A stretch of 64,000 bases of DNA from Verrucomicrobiota bacterium (lineage in GTDB: Bacteria > Verrucomicrobiota > Verrucomicrobiia > Chthoniobacterales > UBA6821). The stretch is taken from contig JAIOPL010000023.1 of NCBI GenBank assembly GCA_021413925.1, positions 13,640-77,639 on the forward strand, in the 5' to 3' direction. Both the position numbers and the translations under genes were made by a program. Numbering within the stretch: the stretch's first letter is position 1; each line of letters begins with the position of its first letter. Shown here in pieces: positions 7,607-62,890 of this stretch. The notes under the pieces were generated by a model. It made no database searches, was not told the DNA's origin, and saw only the letters and a list, made by a program, of their open reading frames with translations.

Positions 7607-7620
7607 TTCCCGAGTTTACT

Positions 7621-7753
7621 CACAGCGATAAAGGGGATGAAAGGGATGAGGAATAAAGTTACAACCGGGAATAAAAAACCTGATTGGAATTCGTTTTTCA
7701 TTCCTCTCGGTCACCTTTTATTTTCCTATCAGTTCATCCCCTTTATCCCTGTG
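7621..7753. repeat. palindromic repeat, family 1, copy 1
   Basis: The left arm is CACAGCGATAAAGGGGATGAAAGGGATGAGG and the right arm is TTCATCCCCTTTATCCCTGTG. The terminal GTG (7751) serves as the lipoprotein start codon. Confidence 0.85.
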
Positions 7754-8209
7754 AAATATCTCTCCGCTCTGTTTGCCGCTGCCACACTCCTGCTCGCCGG
7801 CTGCCTCACCACCCCTGTTGAGAAATCCGGCGGCATGGGCTCCGTCACAGTTATCAACTCCAATCCCATGTCAATCATTGCGGCTGCGCAGTCCGTATTC
7901 CCGAATTACGGCTACAGCCCTGCGTTCGGCAACGACATCAACACCGTCTCCTTCGACAAGAACTCCAACCAACTGGCCAATGTCCTCTGGGGCAGCTATG
8001 GCGATCCCCAGACGATCAGGGTGAAGGTAAAAATCACTCCGATTCCGGGAACGACCAATTACAGAATCAGCCCCAAGGTCTATACCGTGAGTGACGTAGG
8101 CGTGGCGGGTTTTCAGAGCAAGCGCCCCTTGATCGGACTCTGGAATGCCGAGTTCGGACCACTGCTTAAAAAAGTGGCCGCACAGGCCTCTGGTGTCGGG
8201 GCACAATAA
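7751..8209 (+). CDS. lipoprotein, unknown function
   Basis: From GTG 7751 the N-terminus is (M)KYLSALFAAATLLLAGC, which is a textbook lipobox. The longer track ORF (7637) reads through the repeat arms. Confidence 0.7.
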   Translation: MKYLSALFAAATLLLAGCLTTPVEKSGGMGSVTVINSNPMSIIAAAQSVFPNYGYSPAFGNDINTVSFDKNSNQLANVLWGSYGDPQTIRVKVKITPIPGTTNYRISPKVYTVSDVGVAGFQSKRPLIGLWNAEFGPLLKKVAAQASGVGAQ

Positions 8210-25144: not shown

Positions 25145-25528
25145 ATGAGCGAAGCGTTGAGCCCACAAACTTCTCCAACCCCTTGGAAGATAGGGAATGA
25201 AAAGCTCTGCCGCGTGACCGACGCAGCATCCAACCGTCTCACTTCCCTGCTCACCAAGCAGGGGCGTACCAACGGAGCCCTCCGAGTTGCCGTGATTGGG
25301 GGCGGATGTTCAGGACTCCAGTACAAGATGGATCTCGTCGATGGTCCGGTGCCGCGCGATATCCTCGTCCCCTCCAAGGGAGTGAACATCGTCATCGATC
25401 CGAAGAGTGCCCTCTTTGTCAGCGGCTCAGAGCTCGACTACAGCGATGATCTCCAAAAAGGGGGGTTCAAGGTGACCAATCCCAACGCCGTCGCCCACTG
25501 CTCCTGCGGCGAAAGCTTTTCCGCTTAA
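25145..25528 (+). CDS. iscA: IscA/HesB/ErpA-family Fe-S cluster insertion protein
   Basis: ALRVAVIGGGCSGLQY and the C-terminal CSCGESF. Confidence 0.9.
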   Translation: MSEALSPQTSPTPWKIGNEKLCRVTDAASNRLTSLLTKQGRTNGALRVAVIGGGCSGLQYKMDLVDGPVPRDILVPSKGVNIVIDPKSALFVSGSELDYSDDLQKGGFKVTNPNAVAHCSCGESFSA

Positions 25529-25537
25529 CTTTTGAAT

Positions 25538-25620
25538 CACAGGGATGAAGGGGATGAAGAAGATAGTTAGAAGCAGATCATCTATTTTACCCAATCCCTT
25601 TTATCCCCTTCATCCCTGTG
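25538..25620. repeat. palindromic repeat, family 1, copy 2 (83 bp)
   Basis: CACAGGGATGAAGGGGATGAAGAAGATA ... ATCCCTTTTATCCCCTTCATCCCTGTG. Confidence 0.9.
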
Positions 25621-25633
25621 AGTTTTTCCTCCG

Positions 25634-26176
25634 ATGGATCCCTTTGCACTTCTAGCTCTTCCTAAACGGCCACTTTTATCCGAAGAGGAGATCGGATCGG
25701 CCTATCGGAAACTGGCAGGAGAGTCCCATCCGGACCAGAGCGGTGGTGATGCAGTTCGCTTCCGTGAATTCAGTGAAGCAGCCGCAATCCTGCGGGACCC
25801 GGCGCGACGTCTCCGCCAGCTTTCCAGTTCTTCCGGTGGATCGCTGCTTCCACCAGAAGCAGCCCAACTTTTCCCTCAGATTGCAATGCTACTACAGCAG
25901 GCAGACAACCTGATTGAAAAACAAGCCGCAGTCTCCAATGCCCTGGCCAAGGCTCTATTGGCTGCTCCGCTGAAGAATCTGAGGACTGATCTCGAATCTA
26001 CCCTAAATCAAATCCAGGAATGGAGGATCTCCCTGGACCAGGAGCTCGCTGAACTCGACATCCGATGGCCCGAGTATGATCCGAATGCCATTAGCCTCCT
26101 TGCTGACGCGTATGCCTATGCAAGCCGTTGGGAAAGCCAACTCAGAGAGAGAATGCTGTCTCTTGATTGTATTTGA
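25634..26176 (+). CDS. hscB: J-domain co-chaperone, HscB-like
   Basis: The J-domain carries the HPD motif (YRKLAGESHPDQ), followed by a helical C-terminal domain. It sits between iscA and hscA. Confidence 0.75.
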   Translation: MDPFALLALPKRPLLSEEEIGSAYRKLAGESHPDQSGGDAVRFREFSEAAAILRDPARRLRQLSSSSGGSLLPPEAAQLFPQIAMLLQQADNLIEKQAAVSNALAKALLAAPLKNLRTDLESTLNQIQEWRISLDQELAELDIRWPEYDPNAISLLADAYAYASRWESQLRERMLSLDCI

Positions 26177-26178
26177 TT

Positions 26179-26261
26179 CACAAGGATGAAGGGGATGAAG
26201 GAGATATTATCCAATCGATCAGCTCTTTCTCATCATCCCTTTTATCCCATTCATCCCTGTG
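26179..26261. repeat. palindromic repeat, family 1, copy 3 (83 bp)
   Basis: CACAAGGATGAAGGGGATGAAGGAGATA ... ATCCCTTTTATCCCATTCATCCCTGTG. Confidence 0.9.
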
Positions 26262-26278
26262 ATTAGAATTACCTCCAA

Positions 26279-28033
26279 ATGATTGCCGGCATCGACCTCG
26301 GAACCACCAATTCGCTTATCGGGGTCTATGAGAGTGGATTTCCCACTCTCTTAGCCGATTCGGAGGGAAAGCGGCTTATTCCTTCCGTCGTCTTTTATCC
26401 TGAGAACGGAGCACCGGTGGTCGGACGCGAAGGCCTCCGGATGCAAGCGCTCCATCCCGAGCGTACCGTGGCCTCGGTGAAACGACTTATCGGCCGCCGT
26501 TTCGGCGAGGATGAAACAAAGGAGCTTACTGGCCCCAAAGGCGCTCCGGTCACCATTCCGATCAATGGGAAAAATCTGACTCCCGAGCAGGTCTCCGCGG
26601 AAATCCTGAAGAGACTCAAGGCCGTTGCCGAAGAACGCCTCGGTAAAGCAGTTGATCGCGCGGTCATTACCGTTCCTGCATACTTCAACGACGCGCAACG
26701 GGCAGCCACCCGCAGGGCTGGGGAGCTTGCGGGTTTTGTTGTGGAACGCATCCTGAGCGAGCCCACGGCAGCAGCCTTAGCCTATGGCTTGGATCGCTTG
26801 CAGGAAAACTCCCGCGTGGCTGTCTACGATCTGGGTGGAGGCACCTTCGACCTCTCGATCCTGCGTCTCGACAACGGCGTCTTCCAAGTACTCTCAACCC
26901 ACGGCGACACACGCCTGGGAGGTGATGATCTGGATGAGGCGATCGCCGGACTACTTCTCCGTGAGGCCGGCATGGAGACATTGACCCCGGAGATGAAAGT
27001 GCGCCTTAAGGAAGCAGCGCGCGCGGCCAAAGAACTCCTATCAGACGAAGAAGTAACGATTGTTCTCCTGCCTTTCATGGAGGGATCAAGGAGTCTTGAG
27101 ATTCCACTCACTCGGGCGCAGGTCGAGTCAGTCTGTGGACCGATCATCGCCAGAACACGGGCTCATTGCCTGAGGGCATTGGAGGATGCCGGGTTGAAGT
27201 CCGAGGAGATCGATCAGGTAATCCTGGTTGGCGGCTCGACGCGAATGCCCCTCGTGCAGCGCCTTGCCGCTGAGTTCTTAGGTAAGCAGCCAAATCTCTC
27301 CCAGCATCCCGATGAGGCGGTCGCCCTCGGAGCAGTCCTGCAGGGAGCGATTCTGGAGGGAAGCCTGCAAAATGTAGCCTTGCTCGACGTCACCCCTCTT
27401 TCGCTCGGGATCGAAACTTTCGGCGGCCTCATGAATGTCATCATCCCGCGGAACACCACCATCCCGGCCAAGGCAGGAGAGATGTTCACCAATGCCGTGG
27501 CCGGCCAGAGCGGCATGAAGATAATTGTCCTTCAGGGAGAACGGGAACTTGCCACGGACAACTGGACGCTCGGTTCTTTCGAGATCCCCTTTCCTCCCTC
27601 ACCGAAAGGAGCAGCCCGAGTCGGAGTACAGTTCTCCATCGATGCCGATGGCATCCTTCAAGTGCTGGCCCGGGATACCGCTACGGGTTCGGAAAAGATC
27701 GTTGAGATCCAGAGCGCCGTGGAAGTTTCCGATGAGGCGGTCGAGGCGATGCTAGCCGGATCGCTGGAGCATGCCTTCGAGGACATGGACGCAAGGATCT
27801 TCACCGAGGCAAGACTCAAGGCGGAGGAGATGCTCCCGGCGGTGGAGGCGGCCTTGGCACAGCTCGGATCCGAAATTCCCGAATCGGAGTTTCTGGAGAT
27901 CCGGGAAAAGTCATCTGAAGTACAGGCTGCTTTGGAATCCAAGGAAACCTCGCGACTCAAACAGGCCCTCGCAGTACTCGATAACGCTACCCAGACCTTG
28001 GCAACCAAGCTTCTCGAGAAAGCCATGGGATAG
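26279..28033 (+). CDS. hscA: Hsp70-family Fe-S cluster chaperone
   Basis: [20 protein letters not shown] and [11 protein letters not shown]. It is 584 aa and follows hscB. Confidence 0.85.
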
Positions 28034-30420: not shown

Positions 30421-30427
30421 TAAAACT

Positions 30428-30521
30428 CACAGAGATAAAGGGGATAAAAGGGATTGGATGCCTAGGGGATTCTGTATTTTTTGATTCTTTCGATATCACC
30501 TTCATCTCCTTCATCCCTGTG
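30428..30521. repeat. palindromic repeat, family 1, copy 4 (94 bp)
   Basis: CACAGAGATAAAGGGGATAAAAGGGAT ... ATCACCTTCATCTCCTTCATCCCTGTG. The right end encodes the last codons and the stop of the GT1 gene. Confidence 0.9.
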
Positions 30522-31530
30522 AACTTATCAATTCACAAAGAAAGGCGGCAAGCTGAGTACCCACCTTTTCGTGTGTGAAACGCTCTTGGACAGTTTTCCG
30601 GCCGAATTCCCCTGTTTTCTTTCGTAGGGCGGAGTCTGAAAGAAGTTGAGCTAATGCGGAGGCCCAGCCGCCTGGCTTCACCACGAGCCCAGAGCCGGTC
30701 GCTTCTATCCACTCGCGGTTCACACCGACATCGCTCGCCACCACAGGAAGTCCGCATGCCATGTATTGGAGCGCTTTGTAGGCGCATTTGCCACGCGTGA
30801 ATCCGTCATCCGCCAGAGGCATGATGCCGAGATCAGCCGAGGCAATGGCGTCGTATTCGGACTTTTCGCTCCACTCGATAAATTCCCAAGAAGTAAACTG
30901 ACGAAATAACGGAGGGCGGTTGCTGACGATCCGAAGCAGGAAAGGATGCACCGCATGAGCTGCCAGAAGTTCAGTCTCCATCGCCTCGACTTGGGCAACG
31001 TTCGCCCCCATGCCAACCCAGACCACCACAGGAGTGTTTCCCGTTTCCCGATGATCCCTGGAGGGAAACTCGGGAACGCTTGTCGGAATCAATTGCGTCT
31101 CAAGCTTCGGTGCGCTGCTTTTGATTTTCTGCTCCAAATAGGGGCTTCCGCAGATGGCCCCATCCAGGAAGTGCATCAAGAACCCGAAGCGCCTTGCCTG
31201 CTTGCCGCTTCGGTAGGGAACATGGTTTTTCTTTCCCATCCAGACCGCATCATCGAGATCAAAGAGCAGTCGCTTTGCTGCCCGTCTGAGTCTCAGCACG
31301 TTCCACTGACTCATCAGAACCTTCTGCCAGAGCACGGCATCCACGGTGCGGGCTTTTCTCAGAAGTTCTCCCCACGATTCCCTCCGTTTGGGCTGAAGCA
31401 TTACTTCAACTGTGATTCCGGCGGCTTTGAGAGCATCCAGATGTTGAAAGATCCTCAGCCTGCTACTCGGACTGATCGCCGGATCCTCCACCACGCAGAG
31501 TAAGGAGAGAGTTTTGGAGGGATTCATCAA
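30511..31530 (-). CDS. glycosyltransferase family 1 (GT-B, GT4-like)
   Basis: The C-terminal Rossmann domain contains ALQYMACGLPVVASDVGVNREWIE...GLVV (E-x7-E region). Confidence 0.8.
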   Translation of the reverse strand: MMNPSKTLSLLCVVEDPAISPSSRLRIFQHLDALKAAGITVEVMLQPKRRESWGELLRKARTVDAVLWQKVLMSQWNVLRLRRAAKRLLFDLDDAVWMGKKNHVPYRSGKQARRFGFLMHFLDGAICGSPYLEQKIKSSAPKLETQLIPTSVPEFPSRDHRETGNTPVVVWVGMGANVAQVEAMETELLAAHAVHPFLLRIVSNRPPLFRQFTSWEFIEWSEKSEYDAIASADLGIMPLADDGFTRGKCAYKALQYMACGLPVVASDVGVNREWIEATGSGLVVKPGGWASALAQLLSDSALRKKTGEFGRKTVQERFTHEKVGTQLAAFLCELISSQG

Positions 31531-31541
31531 AGGATAAGATT

Positions 31542-32037
31542 CACAGGGATGAAGGTGATGAAAGGGATACTGAACCTATGACGTTTTCAAATAAAGCTTT
31601 TGAAACAAGTACTCAGGTGTGCGAGTGAGGCACATGGAACATTCATTCATCACAGAATCTGTTCTAGAATGCAGCTTTGAGGTTTCGAATGAATTGGGAA
31701 TTGGCTTCCTCGAAAGCGTTTACGAGAACGCTTTATCTGTTGCCCTCAAGCCGCGTGGACTAAGAGTTACCCAACAGGCCCCACTTTCCGTTTCCTTCCG
31801 TGGGGAAAATGTCGGCCGATTCCAGATTGATCTGCTCGTGGAAAATCAGGTCATCGTTGAACTGAAATCTTCCAAGGCTCTAGTGCCTGAACATCAAATG
31901 CAGGTATTGAATTATCTCAGGGCATCGGGATTACCCGTTGCTCTCCTGATTAATTTTGGAACCCTCAGATTGGAATACAGACGCTTTGAAAATCGCTTTC
32001 TTAAAATCCCATCCCTTTCATCTCCTTTATCCCTGTG
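31542..32037. mobile_element. family-1 palindromic repeat whose arms enclose a GxxExxY gene (candidate full-length or autonomous copy)
   Basis: The left arm is CACAGGGATGAAGGTGATGAAAGGGATA (31542-31569). The right arm is ATCCCTTTCATCTCCTTTATCCCTGTG (32011-32037). The arms are 441 bp apart rather than 30-140 bp as in the other copies. Confidence 0.55.
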
Positions 32038-32038
32038 A
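31634..32038 (+). CDS. GxxExxY protein (PD-(D/E)xK nuclease-like superfamily)
   Basis: The signature is GIGFLESVYENAL (G-x-x-E-x-x-Y), followed by IDLLVENQVIVELKS (D...E-x-K). The last nine codons and the stop lie in the repeat arm. The gene is antisense to both flanking genes. GTG 31619 is an alternative start. Confidence 0.8.
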   Translation: MEHSFITESVLECSFEVSNELGIGFLESVYENALSVALKPRGLRVTQQAPLSVSFRGENVGRFQIDLLVENQVIVELKSSKALVPEHQMQVLNYLRASGLPVALLINFGTLRLEYRRFENRFLKIPSLSSPLSL

Positions 32039-32049
32039 GATTTCAGTCG

Positions 32050-33582
32050 TCAGTAGGCCTTGCCAAAGATGACCCTGCGACCGCTTGGCTCTCCAGTAAA
32101 GGGACAGATGCCCGGTTCATTGGTGAACTCATCCCCATTGGCTTCAGGGATGCAGCGGATCGTTACCTTCAGCTCTTCCTTGATCTTAGCCTCCACTTCG
32201 GCGCTGCCATTCCAATGGGTCAGGGCGAATCCACCGTGGATCTCGGGCTTCTCCTGATTCTTCGGGGTGAAGAACGCATAGAACTCCTCCTTGGTGTCGA
32301 TCTTCTTGGTGTGCTCCTTGCGGAAAGCCATTGCCCGATCCAGAAGCCCCTGTTGGATCTCTCCAAGAATCTCCGGCAGGCGTGCGGCAAGCGTATCGGA
32401 GGGAAGGAATTCCTTCTCCTTGGGTCCCTTGTCCCGTCGGGCGACAGCGGCACTACCAGACTCAAGATCGCGCGGGCCTATCTCGATGCGGAGAGGAACA
32501 CCCTTCTTAATCCAATCCCAGGTCTTGGTGCCGCCACCGATGTCGCGGCTGTCGATCTCGATGCGGAGCGGCTCACCCGCATAGGTCGTGGAACGGAGTG
32601 TGGAGGCGATCTCTTCGGCCTTGGCGAGTACGGCGGCGCGGGTCTCCTCCTTAGGCGTGATCGGGATGATGATGATCTGGGTGCCAGCGATGCGGGGAGG
32701 CAGAACGGCACCGTCATCGTCGCCGTGAACCATGAGCAGCGTTCCGATCAGGCGAGTGCTGACGCCCCAGCTCGTTGTCCAGGCAAGCTCCTCGGTATTG
32801 TTACGTGAGAGAAACTTGATGCCTGAGGCCTTGGCAAAATTCTGGCCCAGGAAATGGGAGGTGCCTGCCTGGATCGCCTTGCGGTCCTGGACCATCGCCT
32901 CGATGCAGTAGGTGCGGACAGCACCGGGAAAGCGTTCACTCTCCGACTTCTCACCCCTAATCACGGGAATCGCCAGCCATTCTCGAGCGAAGGTATCGTA
33001 GACACCGAGCATCTTCTCCGTCTCCTCGATCGCTTCGACTTCGGTCTCATGAGCCGTGTGCCCTTCCTGCCAGAGGAACTCGGCAGTGCGGAGGAAAAGA
33101 CGGGGACGCAGTTCCCATCGGACGACGTTCGCCCATTGATTCAGCAGGATGGGAAGATCGCGGTAGGACTTTACCCACTTGGCATATGTTGCGCCGATGA
33201 TGGTCTCGGAAGTCGGGCGGACGACCAGCGGCTCGGTGAGCTCACCGGCGGGCACGAGTTTCCCGTCCTTGAGTTCGAGACGGTGGTGGGTGACCACTGC
33301 GCATTCCTTAGCGAATCCCTCGACATGCTCTGCCTCCTTCTGCAGGTGGCTCAGGGGAATGAAGAGCGGGAAGTAGGCGTTCTTGTGGCCTGTCGCCTTG
33401 AACATAGCGTCGAGCGCCCCCTGCATCCGCTCCCAGAGAGCGTAACCCCAAGGACGGATTACCATGCAGCCGCGTACCTCAGAATTCTCGGCCATCTCCG
33501 CACTCCGGACGACCTGTTGGTACCACTCGGGGAAATCCTCTTCGCGACGCGGGGAAATAGCGTTTTCAATGCCTTTGCTCAT
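32050..33582 (-). CDS. proS: prolyl-tRNA synthetase (archaeal/eukaryote-like type without the INS editing domain)
   Basis: EDFPEWYQQVVRSAEMAE...RGCMVIRPWGYALWE. It is 510 aa and has the C-terminal zinc-binding-type domain. Confidence 0.9.
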   Translation of the reverse strand: MSKGIENAISPRREEDFPEWYQQVVRSAEMAENSEVRGCMVIRPWGYALWERMQGALDAMFKATGHKNAYFPLFIPLSHLQKEAEHVEGFAKECAVVTHHRLELKDGKLVPAGELTEPLVVRPTSETIIGATYAKWVKSYRDLPILLNQWANVVRWELRPRLFLRTAEFLWQEGHTAHETEVEAIEETEKMLGVYDTFAREWLAIPVIRGEKSESERFPGAVRTYCIEAMVQDRKAIQAGTSHFLGQNFAKASGIKFLSRNNTEELAWTTSWGVSTRLIGTLLMVHGDDDGAVLPPRIAGTQIIIIPITPKEETRAAVLAKAEEIASTLRSTTYAGEPLRIEIDSRDIGGGTKTWDWIKKGVPLRIEIGPRDLESGSAAVARRDKGPKEKEFLPSDTLAARLPEILGEIQQGLLDRAMAFRKEHTKKIDTKEEFYAFFTPKNQEKPEIHGGFALTHWNGSAEVEAKIKEELKVTIRCIPEANGDEFTNEPGICPFTGEPSGRRVIFGKAY

Positions 33583-35724: not shown

Positions 35725-35748
35725 GGAGTGAAGATAACCGACATGCCT

Positions 35749-35864
35749 CGCAGGGATAAAGGGGATAAAAGGGATGGGATCCAGGATTATTCAGTATTTT
35801 TTGATATCTCCTTAATCCCCTTTATCACTGTGAAACTCTGATTCCACTCCCCTCCATCCCTGTG
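35749..35864. repeat. palindromic repeat, family 1, copy 6 (84 bp), plus an extra right-arm half-site
   Basis: CGCAGGGATAAAGGGGATAAAAGGGAT ... CTTAATCCCCTTTATCACTGTG (to 35832), then CCTCCATCCCTGTG (35851-35864). The loop is similar to the copy 4 loop (GTATTTTTTGAT). Confidence 0.85.
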
Positions 35865-62010: not shown

Positions 62011-62703
62011 ATGCGATTTTCATTTTTCAACTTCTTTCTTCTCCTGCTCTTGATGGAAATTATTCCCACACTTGTTCACGCACAAGCGGCTGAGGAGATC
62101 CTTATGGCTGCTCGAATGAGCCCAACGGCAAGACCTGCTTCCCTGCGGGCTCAGATCCGGGGCGAGGAGAAGCCGACACTGTTGCGTATTGGCCTCAAAG
62201 ACCATGTGATCACCTACGAGTTCAAGGAACCGGAACAAATCCTCCTGCTCAAACTCGAACCCGGAAACACCAGACTTCTGGAGAAAAAGAACGGGGTGTC
62301 GCAGACCATCAGCGGCTCCCATCTCAACGATGTCATCAGGGACACCGGTGTCACCTATCAGGATCTCTCCTTGGGATTTCTCTACTGGCCCCGTCCTGTC
62401 CTGCAGGGAGAAGATACCATCAAGACCCGACCAGCATGGAAGATCGATCTTCAGGCACCCCCAGGCGAAGAAGCGTATGGCGTCGCCCGTGTCTGGATCG
62501 ACAAAGATTCCGGCGCCATCCTGCGCATCGAAGGCTATGACAAGAAAGGCCTTCTCCTGCGCCGGTTTGAAATCGTCTCCGCGCAGAAGATCGACGGCCT
62601 CTGGATGCTCAAGCAGATGAGGATCGAGAGTTTCAACCCAGGAAATCCGGATCCCATCTCCCGCCGTTACCTCGAGGTACTCGGGAAAGACTCACAAGGA
62701 TAA
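62011..62703 (+). CDS. LolA-like outer-membrane lipoprotein-sorting/carrier fold protein
   Basis: The signal peptide is MRFSFFNFFLLLLLMEIIPTLVHA. The C-terminal region YGVARVWIDKDSGAILRIEGYDKKGLLLRRFEI...DGLWMLKQMRIE is typical of the LolA_like family. The stop codon lies inside repeat copy 7. Confidence 0.65.
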   Translation: MRFSFFNFFLLLLLMEIIPTLVHAQAAEEILMAARMSPTARPASLRAQIRGEEKPTLLRIGLKDHVITYEFKEPEQILLLKLEPGNTRLLEKKNGVSQTISGSHLNDVIRDTGVTYQDLSLGFLYWPRPVLQGEDTIKTRPAWKIDLQAPPGEEAYGVARVWIDKDSGAILRIEGYDKKGLLLRRFEIVSAQKIDGLWMLKQMRIESFNPGNPDPISRRYLEVLGKDSQG

Positions 62704-62890
62704 AGGGGATGAAGGGGATAAGACTGCAGCAATATTCAGAACTGAGTTTCTAAATGTTTTTCCCAAGATTGCTCCGTCCTATCCCCCTGATGGGCTCTCA
62801 TGAACTCGGATAATGCCTTAGTTTGATGCACGCGATCATGCCACTTAGCAGGATTTCAATCCCATCACTTTCATCCCCTTCATCCCTGTG
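62693..62890. repeat. palindromic repeat, family 1, copy 7 (198 bp, long loop)
   Basis: CACAAGGATAAAGGGGATGAAGGGGATA ... AATCCCATCACTTTCATCCCCTTCATCCCTGTG. Confidence 0.9.

Follow-up and report, generated by a model that had tools for sequence, protein, structure and literature searches.

The 64-kb stretch of a Verrucomicrobiota contig (JAIOPL010000023.1) analysed here, hereafter the window, contains a small gene of the GxxExxY family that lies inside a palindromic repeat element, e5 (31541-32038). The gene (31634-32038, + strand) encodes a 134-amino-acid (aa) protein with a predicted PD-(D/E)XK nuclease fold, and it is the sole member of its family within the window. It is preceded by GT1 (30511-31530) and followed by proS (32050-33582), both on the - strand, such that the nuclease open reading frame (ORF) is antisense to both of its neighbours. 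The G+C content of the ORF is 45%, as compared with 56.7% across the window. Two inverted arms of 28 nt each (31541-31568 and 32011-32038), which are 93% complementary and have 442 nt between them, bracket the gene. The left arm (31541-31569) is made up of three 9-bp sub-repeats, TCACAGGGAT GAAGGTGAT GAAAGGGAT(A), while the right arm (32011-32038) reads ATCCCTTTCATCTCCTTTATCCCTGTGA and codes for the final 8-9 codons of the ORF together with its TGA stop. An initial annotation of this DNA had described the near-perfect reverse complementarity of the arms, the antisense orientation of the ORF, its A/T richness relative to its surroundings and the encoding of its end and stop by the right arm; all of these descriptions were borne out, the arm coordinates deviating by no more than 1 nt.

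The left arm is separated from the ATG by a leader (31570-31633, + strand), in which alignment of the window with the orthologous loci L001 and L009 revealed two conserved blocks, AATAAAGCTTTTGAAAC and TGTGCGAGTGA, and which also contains a small palindrome (GTTTTCAAA..TTTGAAAAC). The leader is the probable site of the gene's own signals for expression; a sigma-70 consensus promoter was not detected. The outer end of the window arms is (A/T)TTCACAGGGAT, also given as (A/T)TTCACAG, and the inverted repeat reaches out to (A/T)TT-CACAG...CTGTG-AA(T/A). The purine-rich strand of the arm has a stop codon every 9 nt. Neighbouring genes run into the arms and stop there because the pyrimidine-rich strand has no stop apart from that in the terminal CTGTGA.

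The window ORF is a confirmed member of the GxxExxY family. It matched PF13366 (PDDEXK_3; 4.8e-40, 137 bits versus a cut-off of 22) and TIGR04256 (GxxExxY; 1.3e-39, 135 bits versus a cut-off of 35), in both cases over residues 6-118, thereby exceeding the curated cut-offs, and it possesses both the signature motif (GFLESVY) and, further on, the core (IDLLVE...VELK), in agreement with what had been read from the sequence initially. When 20 homologs were aligned, G24, E27, Y30, D66, E76 and K78 proved to be invariant; these residues make up the GxxExxY motif, in which E27 sits, and the D...ExK core. The AlphaFold2 model of the protein is a confident one (predicted local distance difference test score, pLDDT, 92.7). 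Its top fold matches in the PDB were the Cas4 protein SSO0001 (4ic1; E 1e-4, template modelling score, TM, 0.57), lambda exonuclease, MGME1 and the nuclease domains of AddAB/AdnAB, with tRNA-splicing endonucleases among the weak matches; a search for solved structures related by sequence found none. Judging from the invariant E27, D66, E76 and K78 and from the likeness of the model to Cas4 and lambda exonuclease, the protein is likely to be an active nuclease. Neither Pfam nor NCBIfam yielded a Y1 transposase match for it.

The family is a large one, comprising 28,284 clusters at 50% identity with E <= 1e-3 and 11,098 clusters with E <= 1e-10. No members were present among 50,697 phage records, and the family is rare on plasmids. 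The window protein had no match in PHROGs, and PADLOC returned weak matches to the Cas4 core alone, with no further defence-system model. Given the lack of phage and PHROG matches and the restriction of the PADLOC signal to the Cas4 core, a phage or defence origin was rejected. Approximately 25 of the best 150 family representatives (P0122-P0124, P0128, P0129 and others) are 250-295 aa long and contain the GxxExxY domain twice; these proteins may represent genuine tandem fusions, or read-through across an arm whose pyrimidine strand lacks a stop codon. A survey of the superfamily published in 2012 lists the function of GxxExxY/PDDEXK_3 as unknown.

The arms of e5 are not confined to the nuclease gene. 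A degenerate arm pattern gave 13 matches in the window, as against none in 100 shuffles, and these matches pair into seven elements, all intergenic, giving a ratio of one gene to seven elements. The initial annotation had counted six short copies, a number that stands, but two of them (e1 and e7) have longer interiors than the others. No strand is assigned to the gene-less elements or to the individual arms. The first, e1 (7620-7754; 135 bp), lies downstream of a class-V aminotransferase gene, and its right arm has a degenerate third sub-repeat. Two 85-bp hairpins, e2 (25537-25621) and e3 (26178-26262), occupy consecutive spacers of an Fe-S assembly/hscB-like/hscA-like cluster (25145-28033), e2 separating the Fe-S assembly gene from the hscB-like gene and e3 the hscB-like from the hscA-like gene; e3 begins 2 nt past the hscB stop and finishes 16 nt ahead of the hscA start. 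Between the convergent tilS and GT1 genes lies e4 (30427-30522; 96 bp), the right arm of which holds the GT1 stop codon. The hairpin e6 (35748-35833; 86 bp) is located between epimerase and alanine racemase genes, and e7 (62692-62890; 199 bp), with an interior of 144 nt, between LolA-like and permease genes. Single-strand folding beat that of shuffles in four of the five short copies tested (z -3.0 to -7.0, including -5.5 for e1, -7.0 for e2 and -4.8 for e6), e4 being the exception (z -0.85). No Rfam match at the gathering score was found in the window. An origin of the short copies as deletion derivatives of the gene was rejected, the interiors of e1 and e7 having no similarity to the nuclease gene.

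The initial annotation had also proposed testing whether other GxxExxY genes have flanking arms and whether arms sit nearer to such genes than chance predicts, and both were found to be so. A profile search limited to one genome per species provided 80 loci from many phyla, among them Chloroflexi, Acidobacteria, Planctomycetes, Chlamydiae, Proteobacteria and Verrucomicrobia, of which 78 were testable for inverted repeats. Each was scored for the best inverted repeat bracketing the ORF, and 229 random positions of the same length served as controls. Flanking inverted repeats with a score of at least 14 were detected at 54 of the 78 GxxExxY loci, but at only one of the 229 control positions (Mann-Whitney p = 3e-25). 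Most of the other loci, when inspected by eye or with a local hairpin score, exhibited a complete hairpin over the 3' end, upstream hairpins, single arms or arms in direct orientation. The inverted-repeat scores replaced a strict detector of 8-10-bp periodicity, which was too insensitive (23/80 loci versus 9/359 controls). An arm usually consists of three 9-bp sub-repeats that follow a conserved outer end. The median arm length was 29 bp, with an internal period of 9 bp in 38 of the 54 arms, 10 bp in seven and 8 bp in three.

An independent set of 120 metagenome contigs (697 kb) was ascertained by arms only. Here, 26 of 278 arms lay within 150 bp of a GxxExxY ORF, compared with 3.8 expected, an approximately 7-fold excess (p = 3e-14). 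The loops in these contigs measured 8-95 nt for the most part, a second set having lengths of 192-215 nt, and all four arm pairs that were spaced 441-454 nt apart held a GxxExxY gene. The same arrangement was observed for family members of 34-45% identity in cultured Bacteroides, Bernardetia, Gemmatirosa and Sphingomonas. In Sphingomonas parapaucimobilis, the gene lies between fabD and fabG, and one gene is accompanied by approximately 17 arm places in unannotated DNA. In Bacteroides finegoldii, it lies between radA and the gene for a FAD-dependent protein, and the PLSDB records of this species include a single gene, with arm matches falling in at least 16 of them. We are highly confident that the gene-arm association itself is family-wide.

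Arm sequence varies by clade, while the design stays the same. The patterns found in different clades are ACAGGGAT-GAA-GGGGAT..., ACATGGAT-GGA-CAGGAT... (the ACATGGAT clade), CCGCAAAT-GAA-CGCAAAT... and CACCACAGAGG-ACACAGAGG...; in clades other than that of the window, the arms start with AACATGGAT, CCGCAAAT or CACCACAGAGG. In a neighbour-joining tree, the type of arm goes with the clade of the protein and not with the taxon of the host. This was evident even within single contigs carrying two genes: on L075, one gene has CAGGAT arms and the other CACGGAT arms, and on L120, GGGAT hairpins accompany one gene and CAGGAT hairpins the other. Each GxxExxY nuclease lineage is bonded, specifically and anciently, to its own arm type.

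The locus was next compared with its counterparts in related genomes. The window proS protein is 90-91% identical to that of uncultured Verrucomicrobiota metagenome-assembled genomes and 75-79% identical to that of Chthoniobacterales. Lake-metagenome contigs carry the nuclease gene at the same GT1/proS site and together with both arms, the protein being 93% identical in L001-L008 and 83% identical in L009-L013, and relatives at 83-98% identity retain the gene in synteny. The initial annotation had stated that orthologous loci with the gene but no repeat would refute its proposal; neither this nor its other refuting conditions came true. The ratio of non-synonymous to synonymous substitution rates (dN/dS) of the nuclease ORF is 0.07-0.09, a sign of purifying selection. 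Of the 28 arm positions, 26-28 are unchanged between the window and L009 despite a dS of 1.2 in the ORF, and the left arm is identical or nearly so across orthologous loci with an ORF dS of 0.4-1.2. Purifying selection acts on gene and arms alike. Between the window and the L001 clade (L001 5987-6391), dS was 0.37 for the nuclease gene as compared with 1.1 to >2.4 for GT1, tilS, serS and proS, and the dN ranking was likewise reversed, with the flanking genes closer to the L010 clade. Because the gene tree conflicts with the flanking genes in this way, the sequences suggest that the element was recently exchanged between lineages at the same site, after their divergence.

The site itself has a varied history. 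In L238 (proS 85% identical), proS and GT1 are 9 bp apart, representing an empty site, and in L235 (5530-5668; proS 88% identical) the same spacer has a short hairpin of another arm type (GGAAATCAGGAAATCAGGAA / TTCTTGAGTTCCTGAGTTCC). The proS-GT1 spacer is a repeated landing site. As for the gene-less elements, e2 is present at the same site in L009/L010 and missing in L169; e3 is missing from the orthologous spacer in L010-L012; e4 is missing in L001, L002, L009, L010, L201 and L203, where tilS and GT1 overlap or abut; and e6 has an orthologous copy in L009/L010. The short copies are gained and lost between related genomes. Transposition of the gene copy, which would place the same protein in several contexts, was considered and rejected, since P0002, P0004 and P0074, though present on many contigs, were each confined to a single context. 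The gene in this lineage is inherited vertically and at low copy. In describing e5 as an autonomous copy, the initial annotation went too far, as the gene-bearing copy acts as a resident single-copy gene and not as a multiplying transposon.

Two layouts were encountered among the loci. In layout A, as in the window, the order is arm, gene, arm; in layout B, the gene stands before, or between, short hairpins that are complete and that frequently form tandem arrays, the length of which differs from sample to sample. Loci of the ACATGGAT clade (L018-L075; e.g., L022 3765-3815, L027 6742, L028 9652) have an ATG within the outermost unit of the left arm. This ATG is in frame with the nuclease domain at 19 of 21 loci and open in 15, and the N-terminus would be MDxQDxQD. 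Translation at such loci appears to begin 2-4 nt from where the element ends; either the mRNA would have no leader, or its promoter, and a ribosome-binding site if there is one, would be external to the element.

Several further arrangements were observed at individual loci. Arm pairs on L134 (3956-4201), L151 (948-1195) and L192 (1898-2144) surround an interior of approximately 192 nt that is 82-89% identical between the contigs and has neither an ORF nor similarity to the nuclease gene; this interior could be a non-coding RNA cargo. On L183 (815-1643), a left arm and a four-unit right arm flank two small overlapping minus-strand ORFs (124 and ~100-154 aa) in a toxin-antitoxin-like layout, with no Pfam match. 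Other cargo between arms was rejected, the candidates (L183, L213, L096) being ORFs without an informative Pfam match, or two separate single arms. In Leptospira (L049 7640-8500), the gene has long direct 9-mer arrays on both sides (ACAGGATAA / GCAGGATAA), which look like microsatellite-type expansions of the arm sub-repeat. In two Chloroflexi (L018 11060-11430; L022 4180-4550), the gene lies directly upstream of the methylase gene of a type I restriction-modification system (hsdM); in L018, hsdM is interrupted by short hairpins with duplicated 95-bp segments, and in L022, five 74-bp hairpins follow the nuclease gene head-to-tail. The hisF-hisE spacer of a Sphingomonas (L226 1500-1880) contains nested hairpins: arms of the gene type (CACGCGAAGACGCGAGGACGCGAAG) on the outside, arms of a second type (CGCGCGGAGGCGCGGAGGCGCGGAG) on the inside, and an approximately 230-nt interior that has its own palindrome. 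On L039 (600-5300), gene-type hairpins are found near small ORF pairs which, by eye, resemble nucleotidyltransferase/HEPN (HepT/MNT-like) toxin-antitoxin modules; these pairs are 5-9 kb away from the GxxExxY gene.

As regards the manner in which the hairpins spread, no target-site duplication was detected among 98 non-redundant elements, with flank matches of k = 3-8 equal to the shuffled expectation. The 5-bp pair AGATT/AGATT at e5 was accordingly within chance and was rejected as a target-site duplication, and apparent T...A ends turned out to be simply further inverted repeat. Pairwise comparisons of empty and occupied orthologous sites were too diverged to define element ends. In six pairs of short elements, three of them in a single tandem array on L120, the loop sequence is common and the flanks are unrelated. 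Elements of the repetitive extragenic palindrome (REP)/IS200 type likewise leave no target-site duplication.

On balance, we favour, with some reservation, the interpretation that the window contains one representative of a system of repeats plus enzyme that resembles the hairpin-forming REP doublets and REP-associated tyrosine transposases (REPIN/RAYT), but is built on an unrelated nuclease. A PD-(D/E)XK nuclease of approximately 125 aa is encoded by a low-copy gene embedded in its own arms of approximately 30 bp, and the gene-less arm pairs, which would be non-autonomous, form hairpins of 85-200 bp dispersed in intergenic spacers and within operons. The nuclease, which is probably oligomeric, would recognise the array of sub-repeats in arms of its own type and make the DNA cuts by which hairpins are copied or maintained in trans, and insertion would leave no target-site duplication. 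We infer, as was initially proposed, that the protein mobilises or processes the hairpins.

The parallel with REP/RAYT drawn in the initial annotation holds for both architecture and population structure, i.e., one gene, many gene-less hairpins, vertical inheritance and no target-site duplication. As described in the literature, REPIN/RAYT systems consist of a low-copy, vertically inherited enzyme gene flanked by its own palindromic repeats, with dispersed gene-less inverted pairs, a lineage-specific repeat type, clusters or tandem arrays of repeats by the gene, and no target-site duplication. The GxxExxY gene similarly has on its flanks the palindromic repeats that also occur, dispersed between genes, as inverted pairs; it is single or low copy and vertical, with repeats that are more numerous, as judged from the window and two cultured strains; and there is an own repeat type per enzyme lineage, with clusters or tandem arrays beside the gene and no target-site duplication. 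There are also differences. RAYTs are Y1 HUH transposases of the IS200/IS605 type, whereas the enzyme here is a PD-(D/E)XK nuclease of approximately 125 aa; the arms, at approximately 30 bp with three 9-bp sub-repeats, do not have the GTAG/CGTC heads of REPs; and the GxxExxY gene is often inside a single hairpin, at the loop position. The host range also differs, being centred on Verrucomicrobia, Planctomycetes, Chloroflexi, Acidobacteria, Bacteroidota and Chlamydiae, as opposed to the Gammaproteobacteria for REPIN/RAYT. Because its enzyme differs and its arms have no REP heads, the system is not a member of the REPIN/RAYT family, though it most likely works like one.

A number of points weigh against this interpretation. 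A minority of loci have no detectable arms (e.g., L165), and at others the arms are direct and not inverted, or form long 9-mer arrays (L049, L080, L214). Arm binding, cleavage and the mechanism of copying are steps that we infer. A hydrolytic PD-(D/E)XK nuclease of approximately 125 aa has no obvious strand-joining activity and, for this reason, cannot alone be a complete transposase. Furthermore, some genomes have many GxxExxY paralogs, which fits less well with a RAYT-like picture of a single-copy gene.

Other explanations of the same observations have to be considered. The hairpins may be independent elements, similar to REPs or to MITEs (miniature inverted-repeat transposable elements), that are moved by the host or by another factor, with the GxxExxY gene as a selfish passenger, e.g., a free-standing homing-type endonuclease gene, that landed in, or was copied into, the palindromes and has stayed there. 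Small PD-(D/E)XK homing endonucleases do exist, I-Ssp6803I being an example, and the window gene occupies the exact loop position of a short copy. The conflict between the gene tree and the flanks (dS 0.37 versus 1.1 to >2.4), suggestive of element exchange at the same site, would also fit, as would the hairpin of another type in the same spacer of L235, which implies that such spacers are insertion hot spots. Yet only one of the seven window elements has a gene, the six "empty" hairpins nearby having remained uninvaded, and the arms at the gene are conserved far past neutral expectation. Moreover, the tracking of protein clade by arm type, across phyla and within contigs, would be unexpected without an interaction between gene and arms. 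We consider the passenger explanation unlikely.

That the arms function at the level of RNA, in the style of intervening sequences (IVSs), seems rather improbable to us. According to this explanation, a long stem with the ORF in its loop would be processed, e.g., by RNase III, the short copies would be stabilisers, terminators or processing sites of mRNA, and the nuclease may act on RNA. There was, however, no rRNA in the window and no conserved 16S/23S motif in 226 related loci (1.96 Mb), so the IVS-like alternative offered by the initial annotation was not upheld; arm mismatches had no sense-strand G:U bias (24 G:T versus 42 A:C), stems were not followed by a terminator-type T tract, and both the spread of copies and the tracking of protein by arm type would be left unexplained. 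Consistent with a role in RNA are the location of several hairpins between co-oriented, and hence co-transcribed, genes (e2 and e3 in the isc/hsc cluster), the superior folding of four of the five short copies tested, the start codon within the arm in the ACATGGAT clade, and the ability of some PD-(D/E)XK enzymes to cut RNA, with tRNA-splicing endonucleases among the weak fold matches. A last explanation, to which we attach very little probability, is that the arms are operator arrays for autoregulation, the dispersed copies immobile decayed remnants or decoys, and the protein a factor with an unrelated role in repair or defence. The sub-repeat arrays do look like iterated protein-binding sites, the protein is weakly similar to the catalytic core of Cas4, and two loci lie inside type I restriction-modification clusters. 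Against this, the short copies are several-fold commoner than the genes, occupy many unrelated sites and show presence/absence between relatives; no defence model beyond the Cas4 core was matched, with no cas genes or spacer arrays; and the family is missing from the 50,697 phage records and rare on plasmids.

Comparisons with other known systems are also informative. The IVSs of 23S rRNA that carry an ORF in the loop (Leptospira, Coxiella; a PF05635 four-helix-bundle protein) resemble e5 in that an ORF of approximately 120-130 aa lies between inverted repeats capable of pairing into a long stem, but e5 is located between the protein-coding genes GT1 and proS with no rRNA nearby, its protein belongs to a different family, and gene-less copies are dispersed. 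Bacterial MITEs with a parent insertion sequence (IS), such as the Correia elements (enzyme unknown), are also short intergenic elements with terminal inverted repeats and a longer copy with a gene, and, like them, the elements here give stop codons to their neighbours and are co-transcribed with operons. In contrast to a MITE/IS pair, there is no target-site duplication, the gene is no recognised transposase and the gene-bearing copy does not multiply; in addition, the short copies have the arms alone in common with the long copy, and not sub-terminal sequence. The protein shares its catalytic core and fold with PD-(D/E)XK nucleases of the Cas4/RecB type, with weak hidden Markov model matches over the D...ExK region, but it is half the size of Cas4, and its model is a nuclease core only, with no added domain. 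Cas4 is known to have an iron-sulphur module. In contrast to CRISPR-Cas, the gene has housekeeping genes on either side and neither cas genes nor CRISPR arrays in its vicinity, and the repeats are inverted pairs and not direct repeats with unique spacers.

The link between GxxExxY proteins and hairpins has apparently not been described before. Within the library searched, the literature on GxxExxY/PDDEXK_3/PF13366/TIGR04256 contained nothing on repeats, although family notes in databases or subscription journals might hold a remark, and the REP/RAYT, MITE and IVS literature as searched did not mention the GxxExxY family. Extending the interpretation from the window to the whole family, which occurs in most bacterial phyla and numbers at least 28,000 clusters at 50% identity, is a more tentative step. 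It is possible that the family is the enzyme partner of a second, RAYT-independent class of palindromic replicators that live long within genomes, in which each lineage would recognise its own arm of three 9-bp sub-repeats and drive the spread or upkeep of hairpins without target-site duplication, a route without known precedent for this fold.

The literature presents REPIN/RAYT systems as the known class of intragenomic replicators that persist and are inherited vertically. Another such class, following the same logic with an unrelated enzyme, would, if true, mean that such a lifestyle has evolved more than once. It would also provide a function for a very common orphan gene, and would account for the intergenic hairpins that abound in Verrucomicrobia, Planctomycetes, Chloroflexi, Acidobacteria, Chlamydiae and the Bacteroides of the gut, where they change the ends of genes and the spacers of operons. 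The proposal is directly testable, as the cultured Bacteroides finegoldii and Sphingomonas parapaucimobilis have one gene and many hairpins.

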